Shown here in pieces: positions 7,247-35,954 of a DNA stretch of 54,451 bases. The notes under the pieces are model-generated. The model was not told the origin of the DNA. It did no database searches and saw nothing but the letters and a program-made list of their open reading frames with translations. Origin of the DNA: an uncultured Candidatus Saccharibacteria bacterium (lineage in GTDB: Bacteria; Patescibacteriota; Minisyncoccia; Phycocordibacterales; UBA918); the NCBI GenBank assembly GCA_964425655.1, contig CAYRMU010000001.1, positions 1 through 54,451 of the forward strand, in the 5' to 3' direction. Position 1 is the first letter of the stretch; the number at the start of each line of letters is the position of its first letter. The position numbers and the translations under genes are program-made.

Positions 7247-8263
7247 CTACAAGAGTGCAGCAATTGCTCGCGTGTGTTCAACCAAGGTGTGCGTGTAGCT
7301 TGTCTCGTTGTCGTACCACGCAAGTACCTTTACTAAGTTTCCGTCAACCACGCGCGTTAGAGGAAGGTCAATAATAGCTGCAACCCGAGCACCGATGATG
7401 TCACTTGAAACGAGCGGCTCATCAGTAACCGCCATGAGGTTCTTCCACTGGTCTGAGGCGGCAGCTGCCACAAAGGCAGCATTCACCTCTTCAACCGTCG
7501 TCGGTCGAGATGCAATAAACGTAACATCAACAATTGACCCACAGGGTACTGGTACGCGAATCGCAATACCGTCAAATTTGTTGGTGAGCTCAGTGTGCGC
7601 CAAGGTGGTAGCTTTCGCTGCGCCAGTAGATGACGGGATGATGTTCTGCGCTGCTGCACGCCCCTCTCGTAAGTCTTTCTTACTTGGACCATCAACAAGT
7701 GCTTGCGTGGCGGTATAGGCGTGTACGGTGTTCAAAATAGCCTTTTCAATACCGACCGCCGCTTTCATAACGGCAATCACCGGACTCGTCGCGTTCGTGG
7801 TACACGATGCATTTGAGGTGATGGCGCAGGTCGTAAGGTCGTGTTCGTTAACACCCATGAGGACCGTTGCTCCAGGTACCGTACTGCTTCCATCTTTAGC
7901 TGGTCCTGAGATAACCACCCGCTTTGCACCCGCATCGATGTGCATCTGTGACTGTTCGTAACTCGTGAAGATACCAGTTGACTCAATCACGATATCAATC
8001 CCCATCGCTCCCCACGGCAACGCCTTCGGATCTTTCTCCTGCACAATTGTAATTTTCTTTCCATTCACGATGAGCGCCCCTTCCCCCACTTCGACTGAAA
8101 AGGGACTATGTCCGTACACGGTATCGTACTTTAAGAGGTAGGCGAGACTTTCTAAGCTTCCGAGGTCGTTGACGGCCACAATATCAATATCAGGATTTTC
8201 GAATGCCATCTTAAAAAACGTACGACCAATACGACCAAACCCATTAATTGCGACTTTTGCCAT
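7247..8263 (-). CDS. gap: type I glyceraldehyde-3-phosphate dehydrogenase
   Basis: MAKVAINGFGRIGR, and the active site SNASCTTNA. Confidence 0.95.
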   Translation of the reverse strand: MAKVAINGFGRIGRTFFKMAFENPDIDIVAVNDLGSLESLAYLLKYDTVYGHSPFSVEVGEGALIVNGKKITIVQEKDPKALPWGAMGIDIVIESTGIFTSYEQSQMHIDAGAKRVVISGPAKDGSSTVPGATVLMGVNEHDLTTCAITSNASCTTNATSPVIAVMKAAVGIEKAILNTVHAYTATQALVDGPSKKDLREGRAAAQNIIPSSTGAAKATTLAHTELTNKFDGIAIRVPVPCGSIVDVTFIASRPTTVEEVNAAFVAAAASDQWKNLMAVTDEPLVSSDIIGARVAAIIDLPLTRVVDGNLVKVLAWYDNETSYTHTLVEHTRAIAALL

Positions 8264-8309
8264 AGATTGAAAAATTATGATTACTAGACTGGTTCTACTA
8301 TACCGCGAA

Positions 8310-8329
8310 GGGGGTGCCGCAGCACCCCC
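8310..8329 (-). terminator. GC-rich hairpin downstream of the FN3 gene (weak U-tract)
   Basis: gggggtgc-cgca-gcaccccc: an 8-bp stem, with only TT following on the minus strand. Confidence 0.45.
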
Positions 8330-8353
8330 AACTTATCCTCATGTTGCGGAACG

Positions 8354-9991
8354 TTACTGTATGTGGAGCGTATTTCTGCGTCGTCGTCTTCCAAAAAAGA
8401 ATCGAAGCAAAAGCAAGAGAAGCCACCACAAGCCAAACATGGTGAGCAAACCAATGATGCCTCCAAGAATGATGTACGTGGTTGCAACGTAGAGCACCGT
8501 CTCCTCTGCCTCTGTCACTTGTGCTGCAGGAAGTACCTCAAGGGTTCCGGTAACGCTTCCGAGTGTCAGCGTGTTACGGTCAAAGACCGAGAGCTGCATT
8601 GGATACAGACCAACGTCTTCCATGCTGGCAGCCATCGCTTCAAAATGGGTTCCTGCGTCATTTCGGCGAAGTAAGTACGACGTGGTTCGATCGGCTTTCG
8701 TTGGGTGCTGCCACGTCACAATAACAGTTCGTACATCTGATGGGACAAGCGCCACCGGAACACGAATCACAAACGGAGCACCTGCCACGACTGCAATAGT
8801 CTCTGTTTGAGCTGGAACGAGTTCATCAAACTGCACTATCGTAATGTCGGCAAACGTGAGTCGGAAGAATTCTTGCTGCACCTCGTTTGGAGCGGCTGCA
8901 CTCGACGTGCTCGTTGTACCCCTTGGCAGCTGACTACCTGAGGTTGGTAGCACCGGCTCACTAGGCGGGAGACGGACCCCTGCTCGAAGCGCTAGTGCCA
9001 CGGCACCTGATGATGGCTGACCATCAATATTGTAGGCAAAGACTGTGTAGTACTGCCGATCATGTTCCCTGAGCGCACCTTCGTCATAAAACGTATCAGC
9101 TAAGCCTTCATAGACAATATAGCCATCATTCGGTGAGACAGGATACGTATAGTGGCTTCGCACCACCCGCACATACCCAAGTGCATCCCCTACCGGATTG
9201 CCCCACTGGAGAAGCACATTGAGCCCCGATACAGTCGCAGTAAAAAAGGAGACATTCGGCGCAGCTGCTAGGCTAAAGCGACTCAGTGTCGTGAAGCTGT
9301 CTTCACGCAAGAGGACCTCACGACCAAAGCGATCTTTTCCGAAGAGTGCATAAAAATAGGTCGTTGACGGCGCTAAGTCGGTCAAGATTGTACTATGATC
9401 TTTTTTATAAAGATCTGACTGCACAAAACCATCAGTCACTGCATCGGTTGTTCCGTAGCGCAGTATGTAGGTAACTGGCTGGAGTGTCCCAAAGGTAAAG
9501 CGCGCACTCCCGGTTCCCGGGTCAACATCAAGTGTACGGAGTCGTGGCGGCATGACTGTCGACTGGGGCGCAGCGTCAACATCTTCAGCAGGTGGCGGTG
9601 CCGCAAAGGTAGTAGTACTCACACTAACTGAAGACGTCGAGATATTTCCGAACAAATCAAATGCATCTACGTAGTAGGTGTAGGTTGTACTTGGGGTGAG
9701 TCCCGTGTCGCTATAGGTAAGGAGGGTCGTTGTCGCAATCTGCACGGCATCACGAAAGAGGCGGTAGCCCGCCAACACGTTGTTATCTGTCGAAGCGCCC
9801 CAGGTTACGTCAATTTGCGTTGTCGCAATTGGCGTCGCAGTTACCGGTGCAGGTATCGAAGGTGCAACTGCATCATCTCCGTAGAGCTGCTGCACGGTAA
9901 ACTCATCTGTTGACTGCGCTAGAGATGGCACGGGTATCAGTGCCGCCACTCCACAAGACAAACACAGCGCTACGACAATTGCACGAATCAT
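8354..9991 (-). CDS. cell-surface protein with about three fibronectin type III-like domains and a C-terminal TM anchor
   Basis: Signal peptide present. An FN3 signature is present (IDVTWGASTDNNVLAGYRLFRD...GLTPSTTYTYYVDAFD), with two further FN3-like segments. The C-terminus is YIILGGIIGLLTMFGLWWLLLLLL followed by RFFFGRRRRR. The ATG overlaps the upstream stop as ATGA (9988-9991). Confidence 0.7.
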   Translation of the reverse strand: MIRAIVVALCLSCGVAALIPVPSLAQSTDEFTVQQLYGDDAVAPSIPAPVTATPIATTQIDVTWGASTDNNVLAGYRLFRDAVQIATTTLLTYSDTGLTPSTTYTYYVDAFDLFGNISTSSVSVSTTTFAAPPPAEDVDAAPQSTVMPPRLRTLDVDPGTGSARFTFGTLQPVTYILRYGTTDAVTDGFVQSDLYKKDHSTILTDLAPSTTYFYALFGKDRFGREVLLREDSFTTLSRFSLAAAPNVSFFTATVSGLNVLLQWGNPVGDALGYVRVVRSHYTYPVSPNDGYIVYEGLADTFYDEGALREHDRQYYTVFAYNIDGQPSSGAVALALRAGVRLPPSEPVLPTSGSQLPRGTTSTSSAAAPNEVQQEFFRLTFADITIVQFDELVPAQTETIAVVAGAPFVIRVPVALVPSDVRTVIVTWQHPTKADRTTSYLLRRNDAGTHFEAMAASMEDVGLYPMQLSVFDRNTLTLGSVTGTLEVLPAAQVTEAEETVLYVATTYIILGGIIGLLTMFGLWWLLLLLLRFFFGRRRRRNTLHIQ

Positions 9992-10749
9992 AGTGGTAAG
10001 GCAGTTATTGTTGTGGTGGCAATATACACTCCAGGCGGCTGCACGACGGAACCCCCTACCCCTACCTGAAACTCAATCTTGGTGGGTGTACCACTTGGGT
10101 GATTGGCTGCGGGCGACGTGGCAATGATGACCGGGGTGGTCGAGAGCCCATCCCAACAGCGGTCGTTAGTGTCTGATCCAGACCCACACACGCCACCACT
10201 ATCAAGATACCGAGCAGCGACATGCGTGCCTTCAGGAGAAAACCCTAAATGCGCATCAGCCGCACCGGTCGTAAAGGTAAAATCGGCAGCTGCCCCGGCA
10301 GGTGCATAGTCGGCAATCGTATTCGCACCTGACTGCATCGCTGGACTTGATTCAGCTACAATCGTGAGTTCATACCCAGACAGGCTATCAGTAGTAACGG
10401 TGACGGTGGTTGAGCCCGTGGCGGTACCGCCAGAAACACCCGGAATCGTTGGTCCAAGCACCACTGCCGCAGAACCAGTCAGCGATATGTAGACTTGCTG
10501 CATTTGCTGATACCCAGCGCGGATTTCAAAATTTGTACTCTCAGAATTGCCGGTGGCAATTTCACCAACAGTAGACTCAGTCTGGTAGTTAGTCGACGAA
10601 CTGAAGCCACCCCCTACGTTGATAGAGTCACTTTGAATCATATAGTTGGTGCTCTCCATCACCTGTGCCAAAGAGAGCTGCAGGGAGAAAAAGACAAGGG
10701 GAAAGAAAAGTACCGAAGCACCAAATGTGACAAACACTTGACGCACCAT
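9988..10749 (-). CDS. secreted beta-rich protein, divergent WxL-like domain (paralogue A)
   Basis: Signal peptide present. Three S-x-STN(Y/F) motifs follow, then TVTVTTDSLSGYELTIV, a C-x10-CW pair, and the C-terminus PPGVYIATTTITALPL. It is colinear with 11959..12645. Confidence 0.5.
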   Translation of the reverse strand: MVRQVFVTFGASVLFFPLVFFSLQLSLAQVMESTNYMIQSDSINVGGGFSSSTNYQTESTVGEIATGNSESTNFEIRAGYQQMQQVYISLTGSAAVVLGPTIPGVSGGTATGSTTVTVTTDSLSGYELTIVAESSPAMQSGANTIADYAPAGAAADFTFTTGAADAHLGFSPEGTHVAARYLDSGGVCGSGSDTNDRCWDGLSTTPVIIATSPAANHPSGTPTKIEFQVGVGGSVVQPPGVYIATTTITALPL

Positions 10750-10751
10750 AC

Positions 10752-11858
10752 TTAGTCTTTTCGTTTAAACTCGAAGCGAGTAAAGATAAATCGAATCAAG
10801 AGGAAGAAGACGAAGAGCGATGCAAAGACTCCGAGCATGATTTTCCAAGGGAAAACCCAAAATACGATTGTCATTTCATCGACAATGTCGTCGTAACTGC
10901 GGTTCAACTGAATAGTCGCAACGTACCGACCGATCAAGAGCTCGCGATCCCAGGAAACCTCCTTGGTGCGCAGTGACTTCGGCAAAATGAACCAAGGCTG
11001 CAAGTCAACCACACCCACCTCTTCACCAATGATGTTGCTGATAGTGATACGTCCGTACGGTGCAAGGTGCACTGAACCAGTACTTTCAAAGGTTACCCCA
11101 AAATCGATCGGGCCGCTGAGGAAAAACTTCTGGTCGCCGAGCGTAGCAAAATCTTTAAGCGAACCTTCTCGCTCAATATCACCTGGAGAAGTCACAAAAA
11201 AGAGTGTTCCGATGCGACTAATGATAGTTGAACCTGGCTTAGCACCACCCTGCTCATCGAGTAGGTTTGGATCACTGGTTATCTGCGTCAGTATACTTCC
11301 ATAGAAGCCGCCTGGCTCTGCATCGGCAGGAATAGAGACAGTAACCGGAATGCGGACACGCTGCCCATGCTCCAGGTAAAACTTATCGTAGGGCACACTG
11401 ATGAAGTCCTTGATACTGTACGGACCTACACGCTCACCAAGGAGACTGACTGCGGTAGAACCATCAACTGACCCCTCTGCGTCTTCCATAGTGAACTCAA
11501 AGAGTTCTCGCTGCCCCATGCGGTTAGATACAATGAGCTCAACAGTCTTTGACTGGCCTGGTGCGAGCTCCAGGTCAAACTTGCCTGGCCCGACCACGAA
11601 ATCGTTGAACACCTCTTCCGGGTTAGGTAGGCCTTCTCGCGGATAGTTATCGTAGAAGGTATTTGCTGCCTGAGGCACACTATCAGTCGATGTACTGGTT
11701 GCCTCAACGACATCCTCAAGGATGAAGTCCGACACCTCGGTAACACCGAGACTTGCTTCGCCCTGCGCAAAAACACCCACAGGCATTGCCGTGAGTGCTA
11801 GTGCTATTACTCCGAGGAGAGAAATAATTTTAGTTGTGATGTGTGTAGCTGTGTTCAT
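10752..11858 (-). CDS. DUF916/DUF3324-like (CscA-type) surface protein with C-terminal TM anchor
   Basis: ATG at 11858 is preceded by AAGGAA, and a signal peptide follows. Matching segments are FDLELAPGQSKTVELIVSNR, PGGFYGSIL, and ILPKSLRTKEVSWDRELLIGRYVATIQL. A terminal TM and basic tail (FEFKRKD) close the protein. This matches the architecture of DUF916+DUF3324 proteins in WxL loci. Confidence 0.5.
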   Translation of the reverse strand: MNTATHITTKIISLLGVIALALTAMPVGVFAQGEASLGVTEVSDFILEDVVEATSTSTDSVPQAANTFYDNYPREGLPNPEEVFNDFVVGPGKFDLELAPGQSKTVELIVSNRMGQRELFEFTMEDAEGSVDGSTAVSLLGERVGPYSIKDFISVPYDKFYLEHGQRVRIPVTVSIPADAEPGGFYGSILTQITSDPNLLDEQGGAKPGSTIISRIGTLFFVTSPGDIEREGSLKDFATLGDQKFFLSGPIDFGVTFESTGSVHLAPYGRITISNIIGEEVGVVDLQPWFILPKSLRTKEVSWDRELLIGRYVATIQLNRSYDDIVDEMTIVFWVFPWKIMLGVFASLFVFFLLIRFIFTRFEFKRKD

Positions 11859-11958
11859 AGAGATTCCTTTGCCTGTAAAATAGTCAATCAATTACAATTT
11901 CGTTGCCAGACTATTTTAGCATACGGCCCTGAAATCTCTAATCAACAACACTGCACTA

Positions 11959-12645
11959 CTAGTTGACCAATGCTGTCAAGGTAGCAGTTGCGTTGTAGAA
12001 ACCGGCAGGCAAATCTGGGTCTGGGTTTGCACCAACACCAACTCGGAAGGCAATGATAGTTGTCTCACCTTCTGCCGGAGTAGGGGTTGCGCGGTTTACG
12101 AGTGTGTACGGAGTGGTTGCGTTTGACTCCATAGTCCAGCAGCGACTAGCGTTACTGTTACCGCCACCAATGTTACAGGCTGATCCGTTGTTGCGGAGCT
12201 CAGTCACGATACTGGTTGATGAGGCAGCGAGCGCGAAGCTTGATGAACCGGTAATCACACTAAAGTTGTAGTCAGCGCCACCACCGTCGTTGTAGTTAGG
12301 AATATAATCAGGACCTGATTCATACTGCATCGCAATTGTGTCAGCAAAGTGAATCGTCATGTTGTAGCCGTCAACGTCGTTGGTTGAGACAGCTACGGTT
12401 GTGGTACCACTTGAGATACCGCCCGTAATACCAGCAATATCTGGGGCCATAACCACGTCTGCTGCTGTGGTTTCAAAGCGAATTTCAGCAGTAATTTCTT
12501 GCTCAACGGTAAACACATCCTCAGCGGCGATACTTACAGTTGGTTCGAGTGTTACAAATGAAAGTAAAGTCACTGCCAGTGCAGCAGTAGCAGCTACCAA
12601 CGCAGCCACTACTGGATTAGTCTTTGTAAAAAGATTCGTACTCAT
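11959..12645 (-). CDS. secreted beta-rich protein, divergent WxL-like domain (paralogue B)
   Basis: Signal peptide present, then TTVAVSTNDVDGYNMTIH, a C-x11-CW pair, and the C-terminus PAGFYNATATLTALVN. It aligns along its length with 9988..10749. Confidence 0.5.
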   Translation of the reverse strand: MSTNLFTKTNPVVAALVAATAALAVTLLSFVTLEPTVSIAAEDVFTVEQEITAEIRFETTAADVVMAPDIAGITGGISSGTTTVAVSTNDVDGYNMTIHFADTIAMQYESGPDYIPNYNDGGGADYNFSVITGSSSFALAASSTSIVTELRNNGSACNIGGGNSNASRCWTMESNATTPYTLVNRATPTPAEGETTIIAFRVGVGANPDPDLPAGFYNATATLTALVN

Positions 12646-12746: not shown

Positions 12747-12781
12747 TAACAAAAGCACCCTCAGGAAGGGTGCTTTTGTTA
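12747..12781 (-). terminator. rho-independent terminator of the giant fibre gene
   Basis: taacaaaagcaccct-cagga-agggtgcttttgtta: 15-bp arms including A/T tracts. It starts 4 nt after the stop at 12785. Confidence 0.75.
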
Positions 12782-12784: not shown

Positions 12785-15700
12785 TTAGCTACTTGCTTCG
12801 GTTTCAGTCTCTGTATCCACTGCTGGTTCGTCTGTGGGCCCTGTTTCAGTACTCGCTTCGCTTGGTACCACCACCTCGTCATTGGGGGTATCTTCTGTCT
12901 GATCCTCTACTACTGCATCGGTACCTATTTCATCTTCAGCCTCTTGCGAAATACCGTTTAGAGGTGCGACTGGCTCTACTGACTCACCAGGCGATTCATC
13001 GGTAGGCTGATCAGGTTCCGGTTCATTTTGCTCTACCGGTGTAGGTGCTGTACCGAGGGCGGCTTCGAGTTCCTGCACACGAGCCTCAAGCTCAGTTATG
13101 CGCTCACCCTGCCCTCGCACAATATCCCACAAGTCTTTTACTGCCTCGACGACGAGCGCAATCATATTGCTCTTATTGAGCGACCAGTAGTCACCTCCTT
13201 TACTCACGACTTCCGGTAAGACCAGGTCGACCTCTTGCGCAATAAAGCCTATCTCGACTTGCGCCCCGAACCGATCCTTGTCTATCCACTCGTACCGTAC
13301 ACCACGAAGCTCAGTGAGGAGCTCGAGTGCATTTTCAACCTCGGTCACATTTTCCTTGAGTCGTGCATCTGAAGGATCGCGAATGATGACTCCATTGGCA
13401 TCCGTTGTCAGGTTAGTAGCACCACCTAAGAGATTCGCAGCTTTTATACTGCCATCAACCGTAAGCTTACTCGAGGTAGAGGTGGTGCCAATACCCAATG
13501 AACCCTCAATGTACGAGCTACTACTTCCGTACACGAGCAGTGCGCCGTCAGTAACAATTCCTTCAGCACCAACACTCAGTCCAACACCAGCCCTAAGCCG
13601 CCCGGCAACCGTGGCGTCATCACTGATAGAGAGCTGACTGCCTGAGATTGAGTACACAATGGCTGACTGCAGAGTTGCGCCTGAGATGTCAAAGACGTGG
13701 AAGTCATTACCACCGACTTCAGTCGTCATATAGGCATACCGCCCGATAATGCGGATGCCGTATGCACTACCTGCGCCGAGGTTGCTGCCGCCAATACGTA
13801 CCGCTGCAAGCGGGTTAGCGACATCAACTACCTCGATATCATCACCGGTTGTTAAGGATGCAATGTAGGCGTACCGTCCAGCCAGCGCAATACCTCGCCC
13901 GGCGGCATCAAGCGCTACTGAAGAAGCTACACTGATGTCTGCCGGATTACGTACGTTAATTACATGGAAATCGTTGCCGGTGCCGTTGGTGGTTACGTAG
14001 GCGTACGCACCACTCACCACCACCTTATGAGCCCCATCAGTTAGCGCAACAGAATCGGTAGTAGTTGGAGCAGTTGGATTACTAATATTGATTACATGGA
14101 AATCGTTGCCGGTGCCGTTGGTGGTTACGTAGGCGTAGTCACCCCGCACAGCGACACCGTTGGCGTTGGTCGGAAGATTTACGCCGCCGACAATCACTGG
14201 GTTCAATGGGTCTGATATATCCACGATGGACATATCATCGCCCGGTGAATCACTCACTACGTAAGCGTACCGTCCTGCTATTGCAATACCATTGACTGCA
14301 CTCGGCATTGCTGCAACAGCCACCTGCACTGGGCTGAGTGGATTACTGATATCTATGACATGAAAATTATTACCAATTGTGTCAGTCCCCACAAACGCAT
14401 ACCGTCCGCGAACCACTACTGCCTCAGAACTGCCAGTAAGATTAATAGCTGCTACCTGGGCTGGCGCAGCTGGGTTTGTTACGTCCACCACGTGGAAGTC
14501 ATTACCAGTCGACTCACTCACCAGGTAGGCGTAGTTACCAACCACATCGAGCGCGTACACGGTGTCACTGAGCGATATACCGCCAACCGATGAAGGTCCA
14601 TAATCGGTTGTACTGTTACCGCCCTGCTGCGTAATTGAGCCACCGAGAATTGTCAGTCTATCACTCGGTGATTCGGTGCCGAGACCGAGCAAGGCACTAG
14701 ATTGGTTGTAATACAGACCGGCTGTTCCGCCTGGACCGTTAAAATTGACTGAGCCATTAACCTCGAGCATCTCTGTTGGAGCCGTGACGCCGATACCTAG
14801 GTTAGTACCAGTAAACACAAAATTGCTGCTCTGGGTTAGGTAGGTACTTGACCCGTGCACATACTGAATCGCTCCAGCCGTGAAGCTGTTGGGAGTATCA
14901 TCAAGTCCGAGGTAGGTCTCAGACCCGCCACCAATGGCGCTGACTGGCGCAAACCGTAAATTACCAGCCCCGTCAGTCACGAGGACATGGTCGCTCGACC
15001 CGTCTTCTGTTGGCAAGGTCCAGACAGTGTCAGAAGCTAATGTACTTGATGCTCGAAACCCTACGTAATTTGATCCGTTGCTATAAAGGCGCAGTGTCCC
15101 CTGCCCCACCAAACTTGCGTCACCATCAATTGAGAGTCGCGTCGCAACTGAGCTAGTACCGAGTCGCAAGCTGTTATTGAGGTAGGTTAGACTCGCTGTT
15201 TGCGTTATCGCTGAACTCGTCGCATTCGCAAACTGCAGGGCTCCTGCAATAAAGGAGTCCGGTGTGTCATCAAGTCCAAGGTACGTACCGTCACCATACC
15301 CGAGTGCGGCTGAAGCCACATTCACCCAAGCAACACCGTCATACTGGAGTAAGTCGCCCGCTGTTGTGGTGGCCAGAGTGACATCAGTCAAGTCTCCGAG
15401 TTGATCTGCCCCACCAAGGCACGTACCATTTACTGCCACACAGCCGCTCGTTACATTAATACCGCCAACAAATGCACTATTGCCCACCACTGAAAGTGTT
15501 GCCATAGGGCTTGAGGTACCGATGCCGAGACGAGTACCGGTAAATACAAAGTCAGCCGCTTGCGTCAGCGCGGTGTTTGAAGCGTTTACGTACTGAATCG
15601 CCCCAGCGACAAAACTATTTGGCGAATCAGAAAGTCCCAGGTAGGTACCGTCACCGAGGCCCAGTGCTGCCGCAGACACGTTTCGCCACACTGAGCCATC

Positions 15701-17143
15701 GTACTGTAAATAATCTCCAAGCGTAGTTGAGCTAAGGCTCACGTCATTGAGCTCATCAAGTGTATTTGCTCCCGTAAGACACGTACCATTTACTGCCACA
15801 CAGCCGCTCGTTACATTAATACCGCCAACAAACAGTGAGCTCGTGCTGTTAATCACAGTGAAGCCGCCGGTAAAGGTACTGTCCCCAACTACCGTCAAGG
15901 TATCGGTTGGGGTCGAGGTACCAATGCCGAGACGGTCGTTGCGGTACACGAAGCCAGCTGACTGCGTCAACGCTGAACTCGTCGCATTCGCAAACTGCAG
16001 CGCACCAGCAATCAGCGTATTTGGAGTGTCGGTTAGGCCGACGTACGAAGCAGGTGCTGCGCCCGCAATACACACGCCATCAACCGCGTAGCAGCCATCG
16101 GTAATGTTCACACCACCACCAAACGTAGACGTGGCAGTACCGACAGTCGTGAGCGTACCAAAAACAGTCAAGCTCGCTGGTGTACTCGTTGCACCGACTG
16201 CCACATTAGTAAAGAATGCTGCTGCTGGTGTACTTGCGCCAATGATAGTGTCATCAATGGTGCCACTGAGGATAGTAAGAATGTTACTAACGTCCCCATC
16301 AAGAATACAACCGGAACATCCGCCTCGACCGCGCACAGAATCAAGTGTTGAAACGTTTTCAATCGTCAGTCCGTCAATTTCAATATCTTCACCTTCCTCC
16401 AAATCAAGTTCTCCAGTCTCACCATTAAGACTCGTCACCACCTCAAGATCTTCGAGGTCAACTGAGATAACTGGATTATTTTGAGTGCCGGTAATACTGA
16501 TGTTATCGCCAGCGGTAACGGTATTGACTATATTGCTCGCAAAAATACTTCCACCTTCCAGGTCAATATCTGCACCATTGGTGGTGATGCCACCTCCAAC
16601 GACCAGCGATCCCGCCACGGTAGCGCTACCGAGCGTGCTGTAGGAGCCAAACGTTGCTGCGCCAACTGTAGTAAGTGTATTCGTCTCAAGTGCATCAATG
16701 GTCAGCAATCCTAAAATAGTCGTCGTCGATAGCGTCGCCAAACCACTGATACGGAGATTGGTATCAATAAATAACGGCGCATTGATAACGAGTGTACCCT
16801 GCTCACTCGTGGCGGTTGGCACGTATGAACTACCCCTTTGCGCTACAGTATCGGTAGGCGAAACCAATTCATTGTTGGAGCTACCAAGCTGCGCCACTTG
16901 CAGTGCTTCGCCAGAAAAAATCTTCCCTGCCGTCGTGTACGCAATAGACCAAACTTTTTCAAACTGTGCACTCATCCGTGACCACCACGGTGACACATCG
17001 TCACCGGCCGCCTCTGTAGCAGCAAGTGGTGCAAACATAAACACGAGCATCATTAAAATAGCAATACTGAGCTTCACTAAATAGCCTCTAGTATACCCAT
17101 GCCTGAGTAGAGAGGTAGTAGTTTTTGCACGAATAATCTGCAT
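12785..17143 (-). CDS. giant (1452 aa) surface fibre protein: N-terminal signal/anchor, tandem fibre modules, LVIVD beta-propeller, S74 intramolecular-chaperone domain, acidic tail
   Basis: A single uninterrupted ORF with an ATG start and an N-terminal hydrophobic segment (LSIAILMMLVFMFAPLAATEA). The domain evidence is given in the sub-features below. Confidence 0.85.
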   Translation of the reverse strand: MQIIRAKTTTSLLRHGYTRGYLVKLSIAILMMLVFMFAPLAATEAAGDDVSPWWSRMSAQFEKVWSIAYTTAGKIFSGEALQVAQLGSSNNELVSPTDTVAQRGSSYVPTATSEQGTLVINAPLFIDTNLRISGLATLSTTTILGLLTIDALETNTLTTVGAATFGSYSTLGSATVAGSLVVGGGITTNGADIDLEGGSIFASNIVNTVTAGDNISITGTQNNPVISVDLEDLEVVTSLNGETGELDLEEGEDIEIDGLTIENVSTLDSVRGRGGCSGCILDGDVSNILTILSGTIDDTIIGASTPAAAFFTNVAVGATSTPASLTVFGTLTTVGTATSTFGGGVNITDGCYAVDGVCIAGAAPASYVGLTDTPNTLIAGALQFANATSSALTQSAGFVYRNDRLGIGTSTPTDTLTVVGDSTFTGGFTVINSTSSLFVGGINVTSGCVAVNGTCLTGANTLDELNDVSLSSTTLGDYLQYDGSVWRNVSAAALGLGDGTYLGLSDSPNSFVAGAIQYVNASNTALTQAADFVFTGTRLGIGTSSPMATLSVVGNSAFVGGINVTSGCVAVNGTCLGGADQLGDLTDVTLATTTAGDLLQYDGVAWVNVASAALGYGDGTYLGLDDTPDSFIAGALQFANATSSAITQTASLTYLNNSLRLGTSSVATRLSIDGDASLVGQGTLRLYSNGSNYVGFRASSTLASDTVWTLPTEDGSSDHVLVTDGAGNLRFAPVSAIGGGSETYLGLDDTPNSFTAGAIQYVHGSSTYLTQSSNFVFTGTNLGIGVTAPTEMLEVNGSVNFNGPGGTAGLYYNQSSALLGLGTESPSDRLTILGGSITQQGGNSTTDYGPSSVGGISLSDTVYALDVVGNYAYLVSESTGNDFHVVDVTNPAAPAQVAAINLTGSSEAVVVRGRYAFVGTDTIGNNFHVIDISNPLSPVQVAVAAMPSAVNGIAIAGRYAYVVSDSPGDDMSIVDISDPLNPVIVGGVNLPTNANGVAVRGDYAYVTTNGTGNDFHVINISNPTAPTTTDSVALTDGAHKVVVSGAYAYVTTNGTGNDFHVINVRNPADISVASSVALDAAGRGIALAGRYAYIASLTTGDDIEVVDVANPLAAVRIGGSNLGAGSAYGIRIIGRYAYMTTEVGGNDFHVFDISGATLQSAIVYSISGSQLSISDDATVAGRLRAGVGLSVGAEGIVTDGALLVYGSSSSYIEGSLGIGTTSTSSKLTVDGSIKAANLLGGATNLTTDANGVIIRDPSDARLKENVTEVENALELLTELRGVRYEWIDKDRFGAQVEIGFIAQEVDLVLPEVVSKGGDYWSLNKSNMIALVVEAVKDLWDIVRGQGERITELEARVQELEAALGTAPTPVEQNEPEPDQPTDESPGESVEPVAPLNGISQEAEDEIGTDAVVEDQTEDTPNDEVVVPSEASTETGPTDEPAVDTETETEASS
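12788..13057 (-). other. 90-aa acidic Pro/Glu/Asp/Thr-rich low-complexity C-terminal tail of the giant protein
   Basis: PTPVEQNEPEPDQPTDESPGESVEP...TEDTPNDEVVVPSEASTETGPTDEPAVDTETETEASS. Confidence 0.8.
13058..13378 (-). other. Peptidase_S74-type intramolecular chaperone/auto-processing domain followed by a coiled coil
   Basis: DPSDARLKENVTEVENALELLTELRGVRYEWID...IGFIAQEV...NMIALVVEAVKDL...ELEARVQELEAAL. Ser1258 (codon 13370-13372) and Lys1263 have the S-x4-K spacing of the endosialidase/tail-fibre self-cleavage dyad. Confidence 0.8.
13664..14566 (-). repeat. seven tandem ~44-aa LVIVD-type repeats (predicted 7-bladed beta-propeller)
   Basis: Seven copies of G(R/D/N)YAY(V/L/I)xxxxxGNDFHV(I/V)D(I/V)SNPxxP. 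An exact 47-bp DNA repeat sits at 13959-14005 and 14091-14137, spaced 132 bp. Confidence 0.8.
14654..16126 (-). repeat. four tandem fibre modules (period about 120 aa) within the giant CDS
   Basis: Y(L/V)GL(T/S/D)D(T/S)P(N/D)(S/T)(F/L)xAGA(L/I)Q(F/Y)...LGIGT recurs at aa 367, 501, 621 and 744. GGINVTSGCVAVNGTC recurs at aa 440 and 560. An exact 53-bp DNA repeat sits at 15420-15472 and 15780-15832, spaced exactly 360 bp. Confidence 0.85.
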
Positions 17144-17229
17144 ACGAAAATGATGCTGGGCTTCACCCAGTTAGCTTAATCGTAGCATAGCGATTTGGTC
17201 AAAATGTGGCTTATCACCGGGGTACAACC

Positions 17230-17502
17230 TCAGTTTTCAGTAGAAACCAGTTCGGGCTGTGTGTAGATTTTGGCGACATTATCAGCAAAGAATAGAACTG
17301 CCTGAGGAAATGAAAATGTCTCAACCTTTTCGTTTGGCAGCACTGCCAAAATGGGTACCTTACCGATAATGGTCATAAAACGTGCATGATCGGGTAGTAT
17401 AGAAAACTCACCCTCGACATTCTCCGATTCTAGCGCAATTACTTGCCCTTCCCAGACGACGCTTTGAGGACTCAATATTTGTACCGTAAACGTATCAGAC
17501 AT
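17230..17502 (-). CDS. atpC: F1 ATP synthase epsilon subunit, N-terminal beta-sandwich only (90 aa)
   Basis: ILSPQSVVWEGQVIALESENVEGEFSILPDHARFMTII matches the epsilon N-domain. It is the last gene of the atp cluster, and no C-terminal helical hairpin is encoded. Confidence 0.8.
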   Translation of the reverse strand: MSDTFTVQILSPQSVVWEGQVIALESENVEGEFSILPDHARFMTIIGKVPILAVLPNEKVETFSFPQAVLFFADNVAKIYTQPELVSTEN

Positions 17503-17508
17503 AGACTA

Positions 17509-19848
<2,340 letters not shown>

Positions 19849-31087: not shown

Positions 31088-32101
31088 TTATTTTAAAAGA
31101 GTTACTTCACGTTCAATCGTAATCCCTGTCGCTTCATAGACCTGTGTCGCAATACCATCAGTAAACGTAAGGATGTCTGCAGTAGTTGCATCACCCTTGG
31201 TGTACACCACAAGCGCCTGTCCTTCATAGCAGCCCACAGTATCAGTCCCCTGCCCTTTGAGATTGAGCACCTTATCAAGGATCCAGCCCAGCGGGACCTT
31301 GACCCGGGTCGCATCGACTGCATACGAAGGTAGGTCTGGGTACTTGTTGCAGAGGGTCTCGTAGTGTTCACGCGTGATCACGGGGTTCTTAAAAAATGAA
31401 CCCGCTGTACCAACCGTGTGCCAGTCTGGAAACTTCTTCGATCTGATTGCAATTACCGCGTCTCGAATTGCTGCAAGTGTTGGTGACTGATCATGAAAGC
31501 GTTCAGCTAAATCTTTGTACGTTACCTGTGGCGTCGGGAGTAGCGTGAGACAAAACGTAACTGCGGTAATAATGTACCGACCACCTTCCACCTGCTTAAA
31601 GACTGAATCTCGGTACGTAAACGCGCAGTCAGTTTGTGCGAGTGAGGTGAACGATTCGGTACAGGTATCAAATACACGAACGAGCGAGACGAGCGACCCC
31701 ACCTCGACGCCATACGCACCCACATTCTGTACTGGCGTAGCACCAACACTGCCGGGAATATGCGAAAGATTTTCCAAGCCCCAGAACCCCTCCTGTACCG
31801 CGTACGCTACTACATCATCGAAAACCTCCCCTGCTCCTGCCGTCAGGTACACACTGTCACCCTCAAGGTGCGGAATCACCCCGGTAATCTTCATCACTAT
31901 GACGAGTCCGGTAATTCCTTCGTCTGGCACAAGTACGTTTGAACCACCACCTAAAACGGTTACGGGAAGATTACGCGCACGTGCAAAGGCCACTGCTTCG
32001 GCTAACTCAGCCTCGGTCGTAACTTCAGCTATGTGCGAAGCAGCACCACCGGTTTTAAAGGTAGTCAAAGGAGCCAGTGGTAGGTGTTCACTAATTAGCA
32101 T
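31088..32101 (-). CDS. murB: UDP-N-acetylenolpyruvoylglucosamine reductase
   Basis: PLAPLTTFKTGGAA, VLGGGSNVL, PGSVGATPVQNVGAYG, and a C-terminal MurB domain. ATG at 32101 overlaps the last 11 nt of the upstream gene. Confidence 0.9.
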   Translation of the reverse strand: MLISEHLPLAPLTTFKTGGAASHIAEVTTEAELAEAVAFARARNLPVTVLGGGSNVLVPDEGITGLVIVMKITGVIPHLEGDSVYLTAGAGEVFDDVVAYAVQEGFWGLENLSHIPGSVGATPVQNVGAYGVEVGSLVSLVRVFDTCTESFTSLAQTDCAFTYRDSVFKQVEGGRYIITAVTFCLTLLPTPQVTYKDLAERFHDQSPTLAAIRDAVIAIRSKKFPDWHTVGTAGSFFKNPVITREHYETLCNKYPDLPSYAVDATRVKVPLGWILDKVLNLKGQGTDTVGCYEGQALVVYTKGDATTADILTFTDGIATQVYEATGITIEREVTLLK

Positions 32102-34301
32102 TCGGTGTAGTCGTAGCAACACACGGCGTTGATGGATCTTTGCCAGTAGAAATATTATCTGCGTAGCAGGTCGCTGTTTCCTTGAACGATGGGATTTCAC
32201 TACCAGCTACCTGCAGCACCTTTACCGCTTCATCAGGTCGATCGAGCTCATAGTAAAGGAACGCTAAGCTCGCGCGGTTTTGCGCATCTTCAGGTGCTGC
32301 AACAACACGGATTTCATAGAGCTCTGCCAAGTAGGCATAGTCCTTTACGAACTCAACTGAACTGACTGCGTAATCATTGAGTGCAAACTCTTGCACATAC
32401 TGATCAGTGATAAGAGCCTTTGCCGCATCAATTTCATTCAAACGGAACAGTACTGCTGCGTAAAAGATACGAGCGGTGCTATTTCGCTCTTCAAGCGCAA
32501 ATGCTTTCGCTAAGTACTCACGCGCTTTACCTAAGTCATTTGCCTGCAATTCAACAATCGCTTGCTCAACGTGAAGCGCCGGCTTATTTGGAGAGAACGA
32601 CAACGCTAAGGCGGCTTGTTCGCGCGCCTGTGGTATGGCTCCAATTGTACGGTAGAACGAAGCTAAGAAATTGTGAATACGAGCATCACCTGGCTTTTCA
32701 TCTGCCATACGGAGTAGTTCAAGCTCAGCCCGCTGGACAATGAGTTGTCGCTCATTTTCAGGTACTTGCGGTGTCCGCACTACCTGCATTGCTTGCTGTG
32801 CGAGCTGCTCAACAATCTCTTGATCAGCAAATGAACCGCGACCAAGTGCACTATGGAACTCCTCCAAGCGACCGCGAGCGGTGTTATTGGTCATCGCATC
32901 AATGATGTCGCCGGCTGCCTGCATGCTCGGCACGTTAAGGAAGTAAACGGTAAAACCAGTAATAATAATTACAATCGGAGCAGCGAACTGACCCACCATT
33001 TTTTCAGATATAGTAAACGACTGTACTCGCTTCATTGGTGTTGCAATGCGACTGTGCACAATAGCCAAGAGCACTGCGTAGAAGATGTAACTGATGATGT
33101 TATCAAACACCACCACGTTATGAATCAAGTACGCTGCCAAGAGACCGAGCAACACGGCTTGTTCTGGTACCGAGAAAATGTTTTCACGCTTGAGAATTAC
33201 CGGCGCCACGAAGAGGTAGTACACCACCGCGGCCATAATAGAGAAGTACGCCAAGAAGCCGATCACGCCGCCAGCAATCAGCCAATCGAGGAAGATGTTA
33301 TGCACTCGATCAAACCACTGCTCCTGGTTCCAGATATCAGCCCGGTACTGCTCGTTAAACACGTAGTTGAAGTTCCCCAACCCCCAACCGAGGATTGGTC
33401 GCTCCTCCACACCAGCCATCGCCATGCTCCAAATCTTTCCACGTGTCTGGAGGTCTTGCTCGATATTAATATTAGCAATACGAGCTACCGGACTTTCTGC
33501 TGGAATAATTGAACTCTCGCGTACCCCAATAAAGGCCACAATCAAAACGCCGAGAGCTACCACGCCAGCAATCGCGTAGCGGCGCAGGTGCGGGAAGCGC
33601 CGTGCGAAGAGCGCGATGTAGCCCACTGTCACGACCGAACCACCAACGAGACCGAGGAACGTACCACGGGTACCAGTCTGAAGTAAGGTGTAGGCCAAAA
33701 TAAAGGCCGCCACACCATAGGCCACACGCTCCCACGTAACTTTCGTACGGAGCATCAAGAGGTATGCGAAGAATATGTGGAAGAGCATATAAATAGCCAT
33801 ATATGCCGCGTTACCGAGCTTTGAGTCAACACGACCTCGAGCACCTTCAAAGATATCTGCCTGCTGCCCAAGGCCGTAGAGGGCCACCATGAGCGCGACA
33901 CCTATTGATGTATTCAAAAACCACCACCAAATTTTTTCTGTCTGCATCACACTACCAAGCACAACCGTGAAGAGGAACACGTGAATGAGCGTGATGTAGC
34001 CATCCATACGCTCGTAGTTACTCCAGAAGCTCGTGTGCGGATCTTCCGCGGTTACCGTTGCTACAGCCATCACTGCCATGAGGGCAGCAAACGTGGCAAA
34101 AATCCAAGAAAACTTTGGTCGGTACTTTACATCGCTGAGCGCGAGGAGGATCCAGGCCGCAAAGACAATTTCAACAATAATGCGGAAGGCAAAGTTCTTG
34201 CCAGTAATAAATGGGAAAAAGTAATCGTTCTCAACGTATAACGGCAAAAATGGAATAAGGAATAGTCCGCCAAACACCACCGCCAGCAATGTATCTTTCA
34301 T
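32091..34301 (-). CDS. O-antigen ligase/Wzy_C-family polytopic membrane protein fused to C-terminal TPR repeats
   Basis: About 12 TM segments are present. The Wzy_C-like core is LLQTGTRGTFLGL...IWSMAMAGVEERPILGWGLGNF...HNIFLDWLIAGGVIGF. The roughly 270-aa C-terminus has TPR-like repeats. Confidence 0.7.
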   Translation of the reverse strand: MKDTLLAVVFGGLFLIPFLPLYVENDYFFPFITGKNFAFRIIVEIVFAAWILLALSDVKYRPKFSWIFATFAALMAVMAVATVTAEDPHTSFWSNYERMDGYITLIHVFLFTVVLGSVMQTEKIWWWFLNTSIGVALMVALYGLGQQADIFEGARGRVDSKLGNAAYMAIYMLFHIFFAYLLMLRTKVTWERVAYGVAAFILAYTLLQTGTRGTFLGLVGGSVVTVGYIALFARRFPHLRRYAIAGVVALGVLIVAFIGVRESSIIPAESPVARIANINIEQDLQTRGKIWSMAMAGVEERPILGWGLGNFNYVFNEQYRADIWNQEQWFDRVHNIFLDWLIAGGVIGFLAYFSIMAAVVYYLFVAPVILKRENIFSVPEQAVLLGLLAAYLIHNVVVFDNIISYIFYAVLLAIVHSRIATPMKRVQSFTISEKMVGQFAAPIVIIITGFTVYFLNVPSMQAAGDIIDAMTNNTARGRLEEFHSALGRGSFADQEIVEQLAQQAMQVVRTPQVPENERQLIVQRAELELLRMADEKPGDARIHNFLASFYRTIGAIPQAREQAALALSFSPNKPALHVEQAIVELQANDLGKAREYLAKAFALEERNSTARIFYAAVLFRLNEIDAAKALITDQYVQEFALNDYAVSSVEFVKDYAYLAELYEIRVVAAPEDAQNRASLAFLYYELDRPDEAVKVLQVAGSEIPSFKETATCYADNISTGKDPSTPCVATTTPNAN

Positions 34302-34473
34302 ATTGCTGAGAATAGTACCACGCCCGCTCCCCTCGCCGCATCACCTAAACAGGCATAAAACGACAAAAACTTAATTCGTCAATACTATTGATGCGCCAAA
34401 GTTTCACTTTTGCCGGACGGTACACTGTATGAACATGAGATTGAAACGACACGTACCATGATAGGATGGTCTA

Positions 34474-35241
34474 ATGATAAAAGTTTTGTCGTCTATCTCA
34501 AAAGTCATTTGGACATGTAAAAATTATTACTTATCTCGTAAAACTCCGGTGGTAGTTTTCGCGCCAGGCAGAGTTGGATCTATGGCCCTGCATAAAAACT
34601 TACTCGAGGCGGGCGTATTTGCGTTCAAAGTAGAATTCTATCTCAAAGATACCCGAGGCTTGTCAAACTTCATCCAAACATTCGTCTTCAAGCGAAAACA
34701 ACCAGCTATAATAATTACGATTGTCCGCGACCCGCTGACGATGATGGCAACATACTTTTTTAGTAAGGCATCTGCCGGGCATCTCTCTGACGCGCATCGA
34801 GCATGGAAAAATAATGACGTCGAAAGTTTACAAGAAATATTTATTCGTGACGTGCTCCAAACTGACCGGCTCGATAGTCACCTCTATTGGTTTGAGCGTG
34901 ATTTCAAAAGTGCAACAGGAATAAATGTCTATGCATACCCCTTCAATAAAACATCGAAGTTTGATTACATCAGCAATACTACCTACCCTATATTGCTACT
35001 GCGCACAGAAATGGACGACACCGTAAAAGCATCAGCGGTCAGTGAATTTTTACACATTAAGGAATTTGCAATTACACGAGAAAATACGAGGTCACACAAA
35101 GAAGACGCTGAGCTGTATAAAGCCTTTAATGCGTCTCTAAAAATTCCTACCGATATACTCAAAAAGATATACACAGCGCCCGTCTCGCAGCATTTCTTAA
35201 CTGAAGAAGAGATTGCAGCTGCGATAACTAAATATTCGTAA
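34474..35241 (+). CDS. sulfotransferase-like protein
   Basis: VVVFAPGRVGSMAL resembles the 5'-PSB loop (PKxGTT), and IVRDPLTMMATYFF resembles the 3'-PB motif (RDPxxxxxSxY). Confidence 0.45.
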   Translation: MIKVLSSISKVIWTCKNYYLSRKTPVVVFAPGRVGSMALHKNLLEAGVFAFKVEFYLKDTRGLSNFIQTFVFKRKQPAIIITIVRDPLTMMATYFFSKASAGHLSDAHRAWKNNDVESLQEIFIRDVLQTDRLDSHLYWFERDFKSATGINVYAYPFNKTSKFDYISNTTYPILLLRTEMDDTVKASAVSEFLHIKEFAITRENTRSHKEDAELYKAFNASLKIPTDILKKIYTAPVSQHFLTEEEIAAAITKYS

Positions 35242-35243
35242 CC

Positions 35244-35954
35244 CTACTTATTTAAGTGTATTTTTTTTGAAACTTGATGCGCGTACTCGTCTGCATCCTC
35301 AGAAACACGCTCAATGTCCTCTTCTTCAGAAGCACCGATCTGTACTTCAAGTATTTTTAAGTCACTATCCTCGGGTGCTTGCGGAGCGTGCCAAACACCA
35401 GGTAAATTCATGCGCACCTCACCATTTGGCATGAAGAAAAACTCACTTCTCTTAGCGTGTTTTTGCAGCGAGAGCTTTTTACCTGCCTCGATGTGCAGCA
35501 TCTTCACTTTAAGGTTTGGCATATCTATAAGGACCTCATACCAGCCCCACCGTGTATCAACGCGCTTCTTGGCGTTTATTTCAGAGCTCGAACTATACTT
35601 GCCGCCGCCTAGTTCAAAGACGGGTTCAATACCAAGCTCCTCACAGACTGTGAGTTCGGGTGTATTTTTAGCCCCTCTGTCTCCCCCATTACCAAAGTAG
35701 TCAGGCTTAATTCGTCGCAATGCTTCGCATACTGTCCCGTCAGTGTCATCGACAGCATGAATGTGCGGTGTGTACGCCTCTAGTAATTTTTTACGATCCC
35801 GCCACGGTTGAAAGAAAAAACCCTTTTTACGGATAAGCCAGTCGTCGCTATTAACCACTATATGCACCTCACCGTATTCTGCCGCCGACTCAATCATGGC
35901 AACATGACCTGGGTGCAATGGATCGAAACCTCCCGAAATGACTATTTTTTTCAT
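35244..35954 (-). CDS. fusion protein: RfaE-domain-II-like cytidylyl/adenylyltransferase + type II PMI-like cupin
   Basis: The N-terminus has ISGGFDPLHPGHVAMIE...VVNSDDWLIRKKG...GGDRG...SSSEI (HxGH nucleotidyltransferase). The C-terminus has RWGWYEVL...KVKMLHIEAGKKLSLQKHAKRSEFFF (cupin motif). ATG at 35954 is used. Confidence 0.6.
   Translation of the reverse strand: MKKIVISGGFDPLHPGHVAMIESAAEYGEVHIVVNSDDWLIRKKGFFFQPWRDRKKLLEAYTPHIHAVDDTDGTVCEALRRIKPDYFGNGGDRGAKNTPELTVCEELGIEPVFELGGGKYSSSSEINAKKRVDTRWGWYEVLIDMPNLKVKMLHIEAGKKLSLQKHAKRSEFFFMPNGEVRMNLPGVWHAPQAPEDSDLKILEVQIGASEEEDIERVSEDADEYAHQVSKKIHLNK

Follow-up and report, generated by a model that had tools for sequence, protein, structure and literature searches.

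A candidate self-cleaving adhesion fibre at a conserved chromosomal slot beside the ATP synthase operon of a Patescibacterium

The stretch of DNA analysed here (the window) is the 54,451-nucleotide (nt) contig CAYRMU010000001.1 of assembly GCA_964425655.1. On its minus strand, at 12785..17143, there is a gene with an ATG start that encodes a giant fibre protein of 1452 amino acids (aa) plus a stop codon, and which stands among housekeeping genes. The locus raises the question of whether a protein built like a phage tail fibre belongs to a phage or to the cell, and of what it does in such a position. The answer favoured here, with moderate confidence, is that it is a core, vertically inherited, Sec-exported, trimeric, self-cleaving adhesion fibre of a Patescibacterium (Parcubacteria/Paceibacteria group, Kaiserbacteria-like), which would work on the principle of phage tail fibres and of the mosaic adhesive trimer (MAT) fibres of Bdellovibrio. 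A first-pass annotation, made from the letters alone, had described a hydrophobic N-terminal segment followed by fibre modules, seven LVIVD blades, a Peptidase_S74 domain and an acidic tail. This anatomy is borne out by Pfam, by reading of the sequence and by AlphaFold2 (AF2) modelling, with both the Peptidase_S74 and the LVIVD profile scoring far above their gathering thresholds. The protein features described below are encoded on the minus strand.

The Peptidase_S74 domain, also known as the domain for intramolecular chaperone auto-processing (ICA), occupies aa 1258-1365 (13049..13372). It is recognised by Pfam (PF13884) over aa 1258-1313 at E = 5.6e-17, with 62.2 bits against a cut-off of 22. 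Among sequences of solved structures in the PDB, the profile matches the ICA domain of MYRF (7dc3, 1.6e-11), with 8jov (3.8e-9) and 6f45 (3.3e-7) as further matches. The cleavage dyad is intact, as had been claimed: Ser1258 (codon 13370-13372) and Lys1263 (codon 13355-13357) lie within PSDARLKEN, an S-D-x-x-x-K pattern, and Ser1258, Asp1259 and Lys1263 are invariant in 35 of 35 aligned homologues. At 60-64% identity to the window protein, the domain is among the most conserved regions of the family. In the AF2 monomer model of the C-terminal part (aa 831-1452) it is predicted with moderate confidence (predicted local distance difference test, pLDDT, 66-81) and ends in a 39-residue helix at aa 1324-1362. 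This helix is the coiled coil that had been listed as an element of its own; its aligned counterpart in the solved ICA domain of MYRF is the helix at the C-terminal end, which makes it part of the chaperone domain.

The chain continues past the chaperone into a disordered acidic tail (aa 1366-1452; 12788..13048), which had likewise been predicted. The tail has 87 aa, of which 31% are aspartate or glutamate and none lysine or arginine, giving a net charge of -27, and it is modelled at a pLDDT of ~30. Acidic residues make up 20% of the ICA domain and 7.5-11% of the chain elsewhere. All 35 homologues carry such a tail, of 72-163 aa, with 16-42% acidic and no more than 5% basic residues. It is thus always present at an identity of just 13-24% to the window protein, and the 35 tails have no conserved C-terminal (sorting) motif in common. 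One may speculate that it contributes to the solubility or export competence of the precursor, or that it repels the released chaperone from the acidic fibre.

On the other side of the dyad is a seven-bladed LVIVD beta-propeller (aa 866-1160; 13664..14548), identified by Pfam, by its 44-residue period and by AF2. The Pfam match (PF08309) has E = 6e-29 and 99.6 bits against a cut-off of 20.2, in six stretches. Seven G-x-Y-A-[YF] repeats begin at aa 869, 913, 957, 1001, 1045, 1089 and 1134. The AF2 monomer has 28 strands in this region, i.e., seven blades of four, with pLDDT above 90 over about aa 850-1150. The propeller is ~45% identical across the species of the family and free of indels, and its invariant residues are the repeat-structural G, Y, A, D and P positions. 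Residues 970-1077 also match the NCBIfam family TIGR04312 (choice-of-anchor B) at 4.4e-18, although with 65.7 bits this is below the cut-off of 100. The match links LVIVD propellers to a family that is defined by variable anchoring at the cell surface.

Directly before the scissile serine there is a presumed triple-beta-helix tip (aa 1161-1257; 13373..13663), which includes the capping loop LGIGTTSTSSKL and the nearly invariant D1248. The tip and S74 domain together (aa 1132-1363) align with the pre-S74 beta-helix and S74 domain of a Bdellovibrio fibre (BLASTP E = 3e-21). These ~100 residues are poorly defined in the AF2 monomer, with low pLDDT, as expected for a segment that would be intertwined in a trimer. 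The propeller had been proposed as the distal binding head. With a beta-helix tip aligned between it and Ser1258, the distal end is better described as the propellers plus the tip, as in endosialidase.

The opposite end of the chain carries the features of an exported protein. Five basic residues precede a hydrophobic stretch of 19 residues (aa 25-43), which is followed by TEA|AG. The whole of aa 1-46 (17006..17143) is predicted to act as a Sec signal peptide or signal-anchor, and an AxA-type site follows the hydrophobic stretch in most N-termini of the LVIVD family. The four short Cys pairs (CxxC/Cx6C) found by reading the sequence, and a net charge of -106 for the whole protein, would fit an extracytoplasmic location.

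Next comes the putative cell-proximal base (aa 47-345; 16109..17005). This begins with a predicted amphipathic helix at aa ~53-76 and contains a core module at aa ~195-300 that ends in the Cys pair of GGCSGC. Residues 202-301 have 56-60% identity to the window protein across the family, again among the most conserved regions. The module is rare: an exhaustive HMMER search with aa 100-345 returned 96 representative clusters among 1.84 billion proteins. Beyond the fibre family, its matches include proteins of ~875-1300 aa in which a MerR helix-turn-helix is followed by a transmembrane (TM) segment, the base module and other fibre-like repeats. These share the pattern ASN[IV]V...AGDN[IV]...SLNGETG...GGC.xC with the base, and none of the five such proteins P0103, P0107, P0113, P0115 and P0117 has an S74 domain. 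Here the hydrophobic segment has to be a genuine anchor in the membrane, and the base module must lie just outside it, which supports a cell-proximal role for the base of the fibre. The MerR proteins look like a cytoplasmic DNA-binding domain tied to an extracellular fibre, possibly a one-component surface sensor. One of them (P0117) has a weak K1-lyase_C match and another (P0115) contains an intein.

Between base and propeller is the stalk (aa 346-865; 14549..16108). Four modules of ~120 aa had been proposed for it, and four starts are found, at aa 367, 501, 621 and 744, each opening with Y[LV]GLxD[ST]P. The modules are alike over their first ~55 residues only, the second halves being divergent, and module 2 is a lineage-specific extra copy, represented by a gap at aa 452-551 in 94-98% of homologues. 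Other stalk motifs are the capping loops [LV]GIGTxxPxxxL, the CxxxxxxC loops and one LRLY...WTLP...VLVTDGAGNLRF module. The stalk is variable across the family and its module copy number differs between homologues.

There are 12 sequence variants of the fibre from separate assemblies, each full-length at 1452 aa and at most five positions away from the window protein. The open reading frame (ORF) is therefore no assembly artefact, and the view that it is undisrupted holds. Polymorphism at the strain level amounts to seven sites in total, with none in aa 866-1160. Strain-level hypervariability of the head, which a comparison of propeller regions might have revealed, is thus rejected. The full architecture of LVIVD propeller and S74 domain is found in about 37 proteins of a 5.8-billion-protein collection, at 36-79% identity. 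All are metagenomic, and the named ones come from Patescibacteria, where they are annotated by NCBI as “tail fiber domain-containing protein”.

The position of the gene is conserved as well. In the window, the order is ribosomal L25, PfkB kinase, type IV pilin, tkt, rpe, rpiB, gap, a four-gene cluster read as d4-d1, and the fibre gene. This is followed by atpC, atpD, atpG, atpA, atpH, three unknown genes, GatB, Obg, SecA, MurB, a Wzy-like gene and an island of glycan biosynthesis. The upstream neighbour is atpC, as had been noted; it is the last gene of the F-ATPase operon (17230..17502, minus strand; Pfam ATP-synt_DE_N) and lies 86 nt upstream of the fibre gene. In four relatives at 42-54% protein identity, the fibre is again directly downstream of atpC. 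Three of these, whose contigs reach far enough, keep the order Obg-GatB-three small genes-atp operon-fibre-d1-d2-d3-d4-gap-rpiB-rpe-tkt-pilin, and the fourth, a Kaiserbacteria metagenome-assembled genome (MAG), ends right after the fibre.

The first-pass annotation had stressed the lack of a phage context around the gene, and this stands. No capsid, terminase, baseplate or integrase gene is present in the 54-kb window, and on three contigs of relatives (592 kb, 623 kb and 965 kb) no phage gene lies within ±10 kb. Over the window, PHROG models match the ICA domain and tip of the fibre, besides generic matches to fibronectin type III (FnIII) and SecA proteins, and nothing phage-like otherwise. 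A scan of IMG/VR returned 430 phage relatives of the fibre. The best 80 of these match only from aa ~1172 onwards, i.e., the tip and ICA domain, at no more than 49% identity, and none of these 80 matches the propeller, stalk or base. In a scan with one genome per species, relatives of the ICA domain occur in more than 500 cellular genomes, with Bacteroidota, Bdellovibrio, Planctomycetota, Acidobacteriota and Patescibacteria among them, which indicates that ICA domains are common in cellular surface proteins. The GC content of the fibre gene equals that of its flanks. Since the slot is kept at 42-54% identity, the composition is that of the surroundings, phages match the tip and ICA domain only, and ICA domains are so widespread in cells, the gene is old, cellular and vertically inherited, and is no recent phage capture. 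The earlier description of the fibre as “domesticated” is to this extent overstated.

This slot, with the atp operon (or GatB) on one side and d1-d4 on the other, was found occupied in a wider set of loci from relatives (L001-L005, L007, L014, L071 and L168-170), and the domains of the slot genes were scored with local HMMs built from the fibre family. In L014 and L071 there is no atp operon at the slot, and the order is GatB, one or two genes, ICA fibre, d1 and onwards to gap. In L012, GatB, an ICA fibre and gap follow each other with no d cluster. An ICA domain is present in the slot genes of L002, L004, L005, L007, L012, L014, L071 and L168; the LVIVD propeller and base module are confined to the LVIVD subfamily. 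Thus, L071 (1226 aa), L012 (1089 aa) and L014 have ICA fibres that lack both, and L168 has an S74 fibre of 3164 aa with many stalk modules. Two further loci have unrelated giant proteins without S74 at the slot: one of 1805 aa (L171) and one of 3214 aa with EPTP/DUF6242-like matches (L172). Diversity at the slot arises by swapping whole heads or whole genes at a fixed site.

Some apparent variation among these loci is of another kind. The length difference between two Kaiserbacteria fibres (3164 aa in L168, 1552 aa in L169) was rejected as real variation, the two being the same DNA with a 5-nt offset, and reflects a frameshift or a difference in assembly. The L014 gene has its ICA domain divided between two frames at ~10190-10210. 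The frameshifts in the L014 and L169 genes may be either assembly errors in repetitive genes or signs of pseudogenisation or phase variation. A Parcubacteria MAG (L008) has two large ICA fibre ORFs (7817-11950 and 14334-18470) ~2.4 kb apart, the first with LVIVD blades, and no d1-d4 cluster or gap near them.

The proposed mechanism is as follows. The N-terminal segment would take the precursor through the Sec system and then be either cleaved or kept as a membrane anchor. Outside the cell, the ICA domain (aa 1258-1365) would trimerise and template the folding of the triple-beta-helix tip and the stalk. Once the correct trimer has formed, Lys1263 would activate Ser1258 and the chain would be cut before Ser1258, freeing a 195-aa fragment of 21 kDa that consists of the chaperone and the acidic tail. 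The mature fibre would have ~1210 aa per chain (~122 kDa, times three), with the base at aa ~47-345, a stalk of variable modules, and a distal head of three LVIVD propellers capped by the short beta-helix. The likeliest target of this head would be a ligand on the surface of a host or partner cell, or some other substrate, and the specificity of the head could shift over evolution through whole-head swaps at the fixed chromosomal slot. Adhesion to a host or partner cell is put forward as the most likely function because of the analogy with MAT and phage fibres, together with the swapping of heads at the slot.

A cell-owned S74 fibre is not a new concept, as the Bdellovibrio MAT fibres are experimentally shown examples. 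These are chromosomally encoded and surface-located, and in 13 of the 21 the C-terminus is formed by an S74 domain that has SDxxxK (Caulton et al. 2024, PMC10769870). One of them, Bd3182, cleaves itself at S782, and the S782A change blocks cleavage (PMC10769870). MAT fibres have tip beta-helix capping loops of the form V-G-G/N-pi-X-X-P-X-X-X-L and share an N-terminal domain of ~130 aa (PMC10769870). The window fibre resembles the S74 members of this group in being chromosomal, Sec-exported (here by prediction), ~1000 aa or longer and phage-fibre-like, with a C-terminal S74 domain with SDxxxK and a beta-helix tip directly before the scissile serine. MAT-style capping loops, [VL]G[IG][GN]TxxPxxxL, are repeated in it, with five motifs of the [LV]G[IL]GTxxPxxxL type in all. 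The module at aa 682-795 (“LRLY...YVGFRA...WTLP...VLVTDG.GNLRF”) matches a Bdellovibrio fibre at a BLASTP E value of 8e-11, so that a stalk module of the form ...YVGF[KR]A...WTLP..DG...VL.T.G.G.L is common to both. Further parallels are the mosaic heads on a conserved base and the life of the organism on other bacteria.

There are also clear differences. The fibre has a base module of its own, the LVIVD propeller head and the acidic tail past the chaperone (72-163 aa across homologues). It belongs to a cell of the candidate phyla radiation (CPR), described as having no outer membrane, and to one conserved locus beside the ATP synthase and a pilus-like cluster, in contrast to 21 dispersed paralogues. 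At the level of sequence, BLASTP finds no similarity between its N-terminal region and those of two Bdellovibrio fibres, and hence no counterpart of the ~130-aa MAT domain. By these comparisons, the fibre appears to work like an S74 MAT fibre and to share its modules, while failing one defining feature, the N-terminal domain. A cell-displayed, self-cleaving trimeric fibre, as the first-pass annotation had suggested, is a reasonable reading by analogy and is consistent with the Bdellovibrio S74 fibres (PMC10769870). A literature search on LVIVD or S74 combined with Patescibacteria found no paper on the fibre, and two papers on host interaction in CPR bacteria are silent on it.

The phage precedents concern the chaperone and the layout. 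In phage T5 pb1 and in K1F, Ser-Lys cleavage is established and needs a correctly folded trimer, and the T5 chaperone has a central trimeric coiled coil (PMC4690869). In T5 and K1F the active site is completed by Arg/Asp residues (Arg1250 in T5) that an adjoining chain supplies from its upstream beta-helix. Endosialidases are laid out as propeller, beta-helix stalk and cleavable chaperone (PMC12632334). As in K1F/K1E and in proteins of the T5 pb1/GA-1 type, the order in the fibre is beta-propeller, triple-beta-helix and a chaperone to be cut at a serine with a lysine five residues downstream. The coiled-coil helix of the chaperone is likewise shared with phage ICA fibres, and the size is close to that of pb1 (1396 aa). 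The fibre is unlike an endosialidase in its seven-bladed LVIVD propeller, as opposed to a six-bladed sialidase. It is unlike phage spikes in having no virion part, an export signal and an acidic tail past the chaperone, and in that the likeness in sequence is limited to ICA and tip. Proteins of uncultured phages that combine a propeller with an ICA domain are present in the BFVD, where the K1E tailspike is matched as well. MYRF, the best match to the ICA domain among solved structures (7dc3), also continues past this domain. Its cleavage frees a cytoplasmic DNA-binding trimer, whereas both products of the fibre are predicted to be extracytoplasmic.

Several observations weigh against the favoured reading. 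Export topology, surface display, ligand binding and release of the acidic tail are predictions, as are trimerisation and cleavage, and for the last two this is a point against it. No LPXTG-like or other known anchoring motif is present in the fibre, and the N-terminal segment is cleavable-looking in most homologues, so that attachment to the cell is not readily explained. The AF2 monomer of aa 44-500 has a mean pLDDT of 61.9 and a predicted template modelling score (pTM) of 0.26, i.e., base and stalk fold poorly as a monomer, and Foldseek finds nothing below E = 0.7 for this model. Nine of its 30 non-significant matches are crystal structures of Bdellovibrio MAT fibres, to which no weight is given. 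Within the LVIVD subfamily, the variability of the propeller does not exceed that of the stalk, and the propeller shows no strain polymorphism, which is not typical of a host-range determinant in an arms race. A Foldseek search of the C-terminal model against the PDB returns only generic seven- or eight-bladed, WD40-like and designed propellers, and for this reason no ligand can be proposed. Finally, none of the characterised ICA proteins compared has anything like the acidic tail.

The most serious rival to a free-standing fibre involves the four genes d1-d4 downstream of it. The gene next to the fibre, d1 (11959..12645), encodes a 228-aa secreted protein, pilin-like or small-WxL-like, which is a paralogue of d3 and has no Pfam or NCBIfam match. 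It is followed by d2 (10752..11891), a homologue of the WxL-interacting protein (WxLIP) with a C-terminal TM helix, in the architecture of a membrane-anchored Pam chaperone. Its match to Pfam WxLIP_PGBD (PF06030) has E = 1.3e-6 and 28.9 bits against a cut-off of 27.3, and in the PDB it matches EfmWxLIP1 at 6e-8. The third gene, d3 (9988..10749), encodes a 253-aa secreted protein that matches NCBIfam NF058579 (PamT, a CPR pilus tip protein) at E = 8e-13 with 48 bits, against an equivalog cut-off of 240. By this score d3 would be a distant relative of PamT and not an equivalog. The d3 family comprises 1225 clusters or more, for the most part “hypothetical protein” entries of Parcubacteria, Kaiserbacteria and Paceibacterota, and the d3 profile has no meaningful match among PDB sequences. 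The last gene, d4 (8354..9991), encodes an FnIII protein (Pfam fn3, 6.9e-9) with a C-terminal TM helix and poly-Arg, a PamR-like architecture. All four are on the minus strand.

The Pam system is known from Ca. Mycosynbacter amalyticus, whose pili have been solved and are built from donor-strand pilins; its other parts are PapD-like chaperones anchored in the membrane (PamC/D), a protein at the tip (PamT) and an anchor with FnIII domains (PamR) (Troman et al. 2026, bioRxiv 10.64898/2026.03.03.709456). The architectures of d2 and d4 agree with those of PamC/D and PamR, a likeness drawn from the description only. NCBIfam yields no Pam model for d1, d2 or d4, PamT for d3 being the only one, and the Pfam WxL domain is found in neither d1 nor d3, even at E ≤ 5, nor in the fibre. 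The downstream locus had been called WxL-like. It does include a true WxLIP homologue in d2, and it is better termed a Pam/WxL-type pilus-like cluster, a name that rests on the homology of d2 to WxLIP and the distant homology of d3 to PamT. The DUF916 beta-hairpin of WxLIP is predicted to insert into the WxL domain (Hassan et al., PMC10599100), which appears to be the same kind of strand complementation as in the donor-strand pilins of Pam. Given these homologies of d2 and d3, the Pam pili of CPR bacteria and the WxL/Csc clusters may be one superfamily of strand-complementation surface assemblies.

It has accordingly to be considered that the fibre is a component of this pilus-like system, either as its distal adhesin or as cargo held by d1/d3, d2 and d4. 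In every locus examined, including those from a search with d3, a giant gene is immediately upstream of d1. In relatives the two are on the same strand with spacers of 68-171 nt and no strong hairpin. The preprint on the Pam pili reports in a single sentence that a “tail fibre-like protein” and the ATP synthase consistently co-localise with pam operons, leaving the fibre uncharacterised (bioRxiv 10.64898/2026.03.03.709456); the triad of ATP synthase, tail-fibre-like gene and pilus cluster is that of the window. In the WxL clusters of Firmicutes, small WxL proteins and WxLIP are accompanied by a large protein that binds the host, and the lack of an obvious anchor in the fibre would fit a protein that is held by others. 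Set against this, the genome of the window has a terminator-like hairpin (12747..12781, bidirectional) with a perfect 15-bp stem and a T-run between the fibre gene and d1, 4 nt past the fibre stop. The fibre of L012 keeps its place beside gap with no d1-d4, and the S74 fibres of other Patescibacteria (L008, L009 and L011) have no d cluster nearby. As the whole region is syntenic, the two may be neighbours for historical reasons. Neither a pilin nor a WxL domain is recognisable in the fibre, and a trimer is no simple fit to a single-file donor-strand pilus. On balance this explanation is doubtful, though it is the best placed of the alternatives.

The hairpin itself had been singled out as a strong terminator of the fibre gene. 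Its stem and T-run are as described, but it is specific to this population: L002, L004, L005, L168 and L071 have short AT-rich spacers with no comparable hairpin. It was thus rejected as a conserved feature of the locus.

A bolder form of the same idea, regarded as unlikely, is that the fibre and the Pam/WxL-type cluster together make up a single composite organelle for host capture, core to CPR bacteria of the Parcubacteria type, in which d1/d3, d2 and d4 would hold or present the fibre and the head would set the host specificity. Such holding would explain a fibre with no anchor of its own. If true, Pam pili and Firmicute WxL/Csc clusters would be one superfamily in which the “large host-binding subunit” has been replaced by an ICA fibre. 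The pam locus of M. amalyticus (Saccharimonadia) is different, with seven genes and large PamA/B pilins, as opposed to a four-gene cluster of the Parcubacteria type in which d3 alone reaches a Pam model, far below its cut-off. The Firmicute WxL/Csc clusters (PMC10599100) consist of small WxL proteins, large WxL proteins with host-binding domains and WxLIP (DUF916-DUF3324-TM). With them the locus shares the WxLIP homologue and the presence of a large, putatively host-binding protein along with small secreted ones. It differs from them in that d1 and d3 have no WxL domain and in that the large protein ends with an ICA domain in place of a WxL domain.

The self-cleaving adhesion fibre may also be set against a purely structural role, in which the protein would be an S-layer-like or wall-spanning scaffold of the envelope with no specific ligand. 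LVIVD repeats are a typical feature of surface-layer proteins in archaea and bacteria, and a conserved, indel-free propeller encoded among housekeeping genes would suit a structural part. Weak matches to a “putative surface layer protein” (8bmy and 8bn0, E ~0.05) point the same way but are not significant. Fibre-type modules and an ICA domain characterise adhesins and spikes that are trimeric and elongated, and the wholesale replacement of heads at the slot fits changing specificity better than a fixed scaffold, which makes this role improbable.

It is more improbable still that the fibre is an endosialidase-like depolymerase spike whose propeller degrades a capsule or wall polymer of the host. 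The domain order is that of the K1F/K1E endosialidases and the top fold match in the PDB (Foldseek) is a propeller enzyme, the phosphotriesterase 5hrm. However, Pfam and PDB profile searches reveal no glycosidase or lyase family with a similar sequence, and the match to the K1E tailspike is poor (query-normalised template modelling score, TMq, 0.26). The invariant residues of the propeller are those of repeat structure, with no evident constellation of an active site, and the Foldseek matches are mainly binding propellers of the WD40 type. A remnant prophage or tailocin tail fibre, the reading suggested by the PHROG tail-fibre matches at the C-terminus (1e-23 to 1e-10) and by the NCBI name, was tested and is contradicted by the absence of other phage genes from the 54 kb and from ±10 kb on the relatives' contigs of 592 kb, 623 kb and 965 kb, by the persistent synteny and flank-like GC content, by the restriction of phage matches to ICA and tip, and by an ORF that is intact in 12 assemblies.

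How Patescibacteria recognise and hold their hosts is largely unknown beyond a few cultured Saccharibacteria, and lineages of the Parcubacteria type are almost uncultured. The fibre locus is a plausible, concrete and conserved candidate for such attachment. A fixed slot with different heads in different lineages can be mined for correlations with host range, and the propeller head is confidently modelled. The locus would also extend the finding of S74 fibres in Bdellovibrio to a second, unrelated microbe-dependent lineage with a different envelope, and it ties together three separate literatures: those of ICA fibres, of CPR Pam pili and of Firmicute WxL clusters.

A few minor features of the window and its relatives were also noted. 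In L171 (Paceibacterota), 15480-18257 encodes a protein of 925 aa that has LVIVD repeats and no recorded S74, after transketolase, where the window has the type IV pilin. The atpD ORF of the window (17509-19029) has 506 aa and extends 4 nt over the stop of atpG. Relatives have 468-472 aa, and their alignment with it starts only at residue ~45-49, so that the additional residues are either a true extension of the N-terminus or stem from an upstream start picked by the ORF rule. At the far end, after a Wzy_C/TPR protein at 32091-34301, there is an island at ~34000-51000 with a lower GC content (41-44% against ~50%). It encodes glycosyltransferases, epimerases, methyltransferases, an asparagine-synthase-like gene and a Polysacc_synt flippase, and is probably a cluster for surface glycans or protein glycosylation, possibly acquired horizontally.

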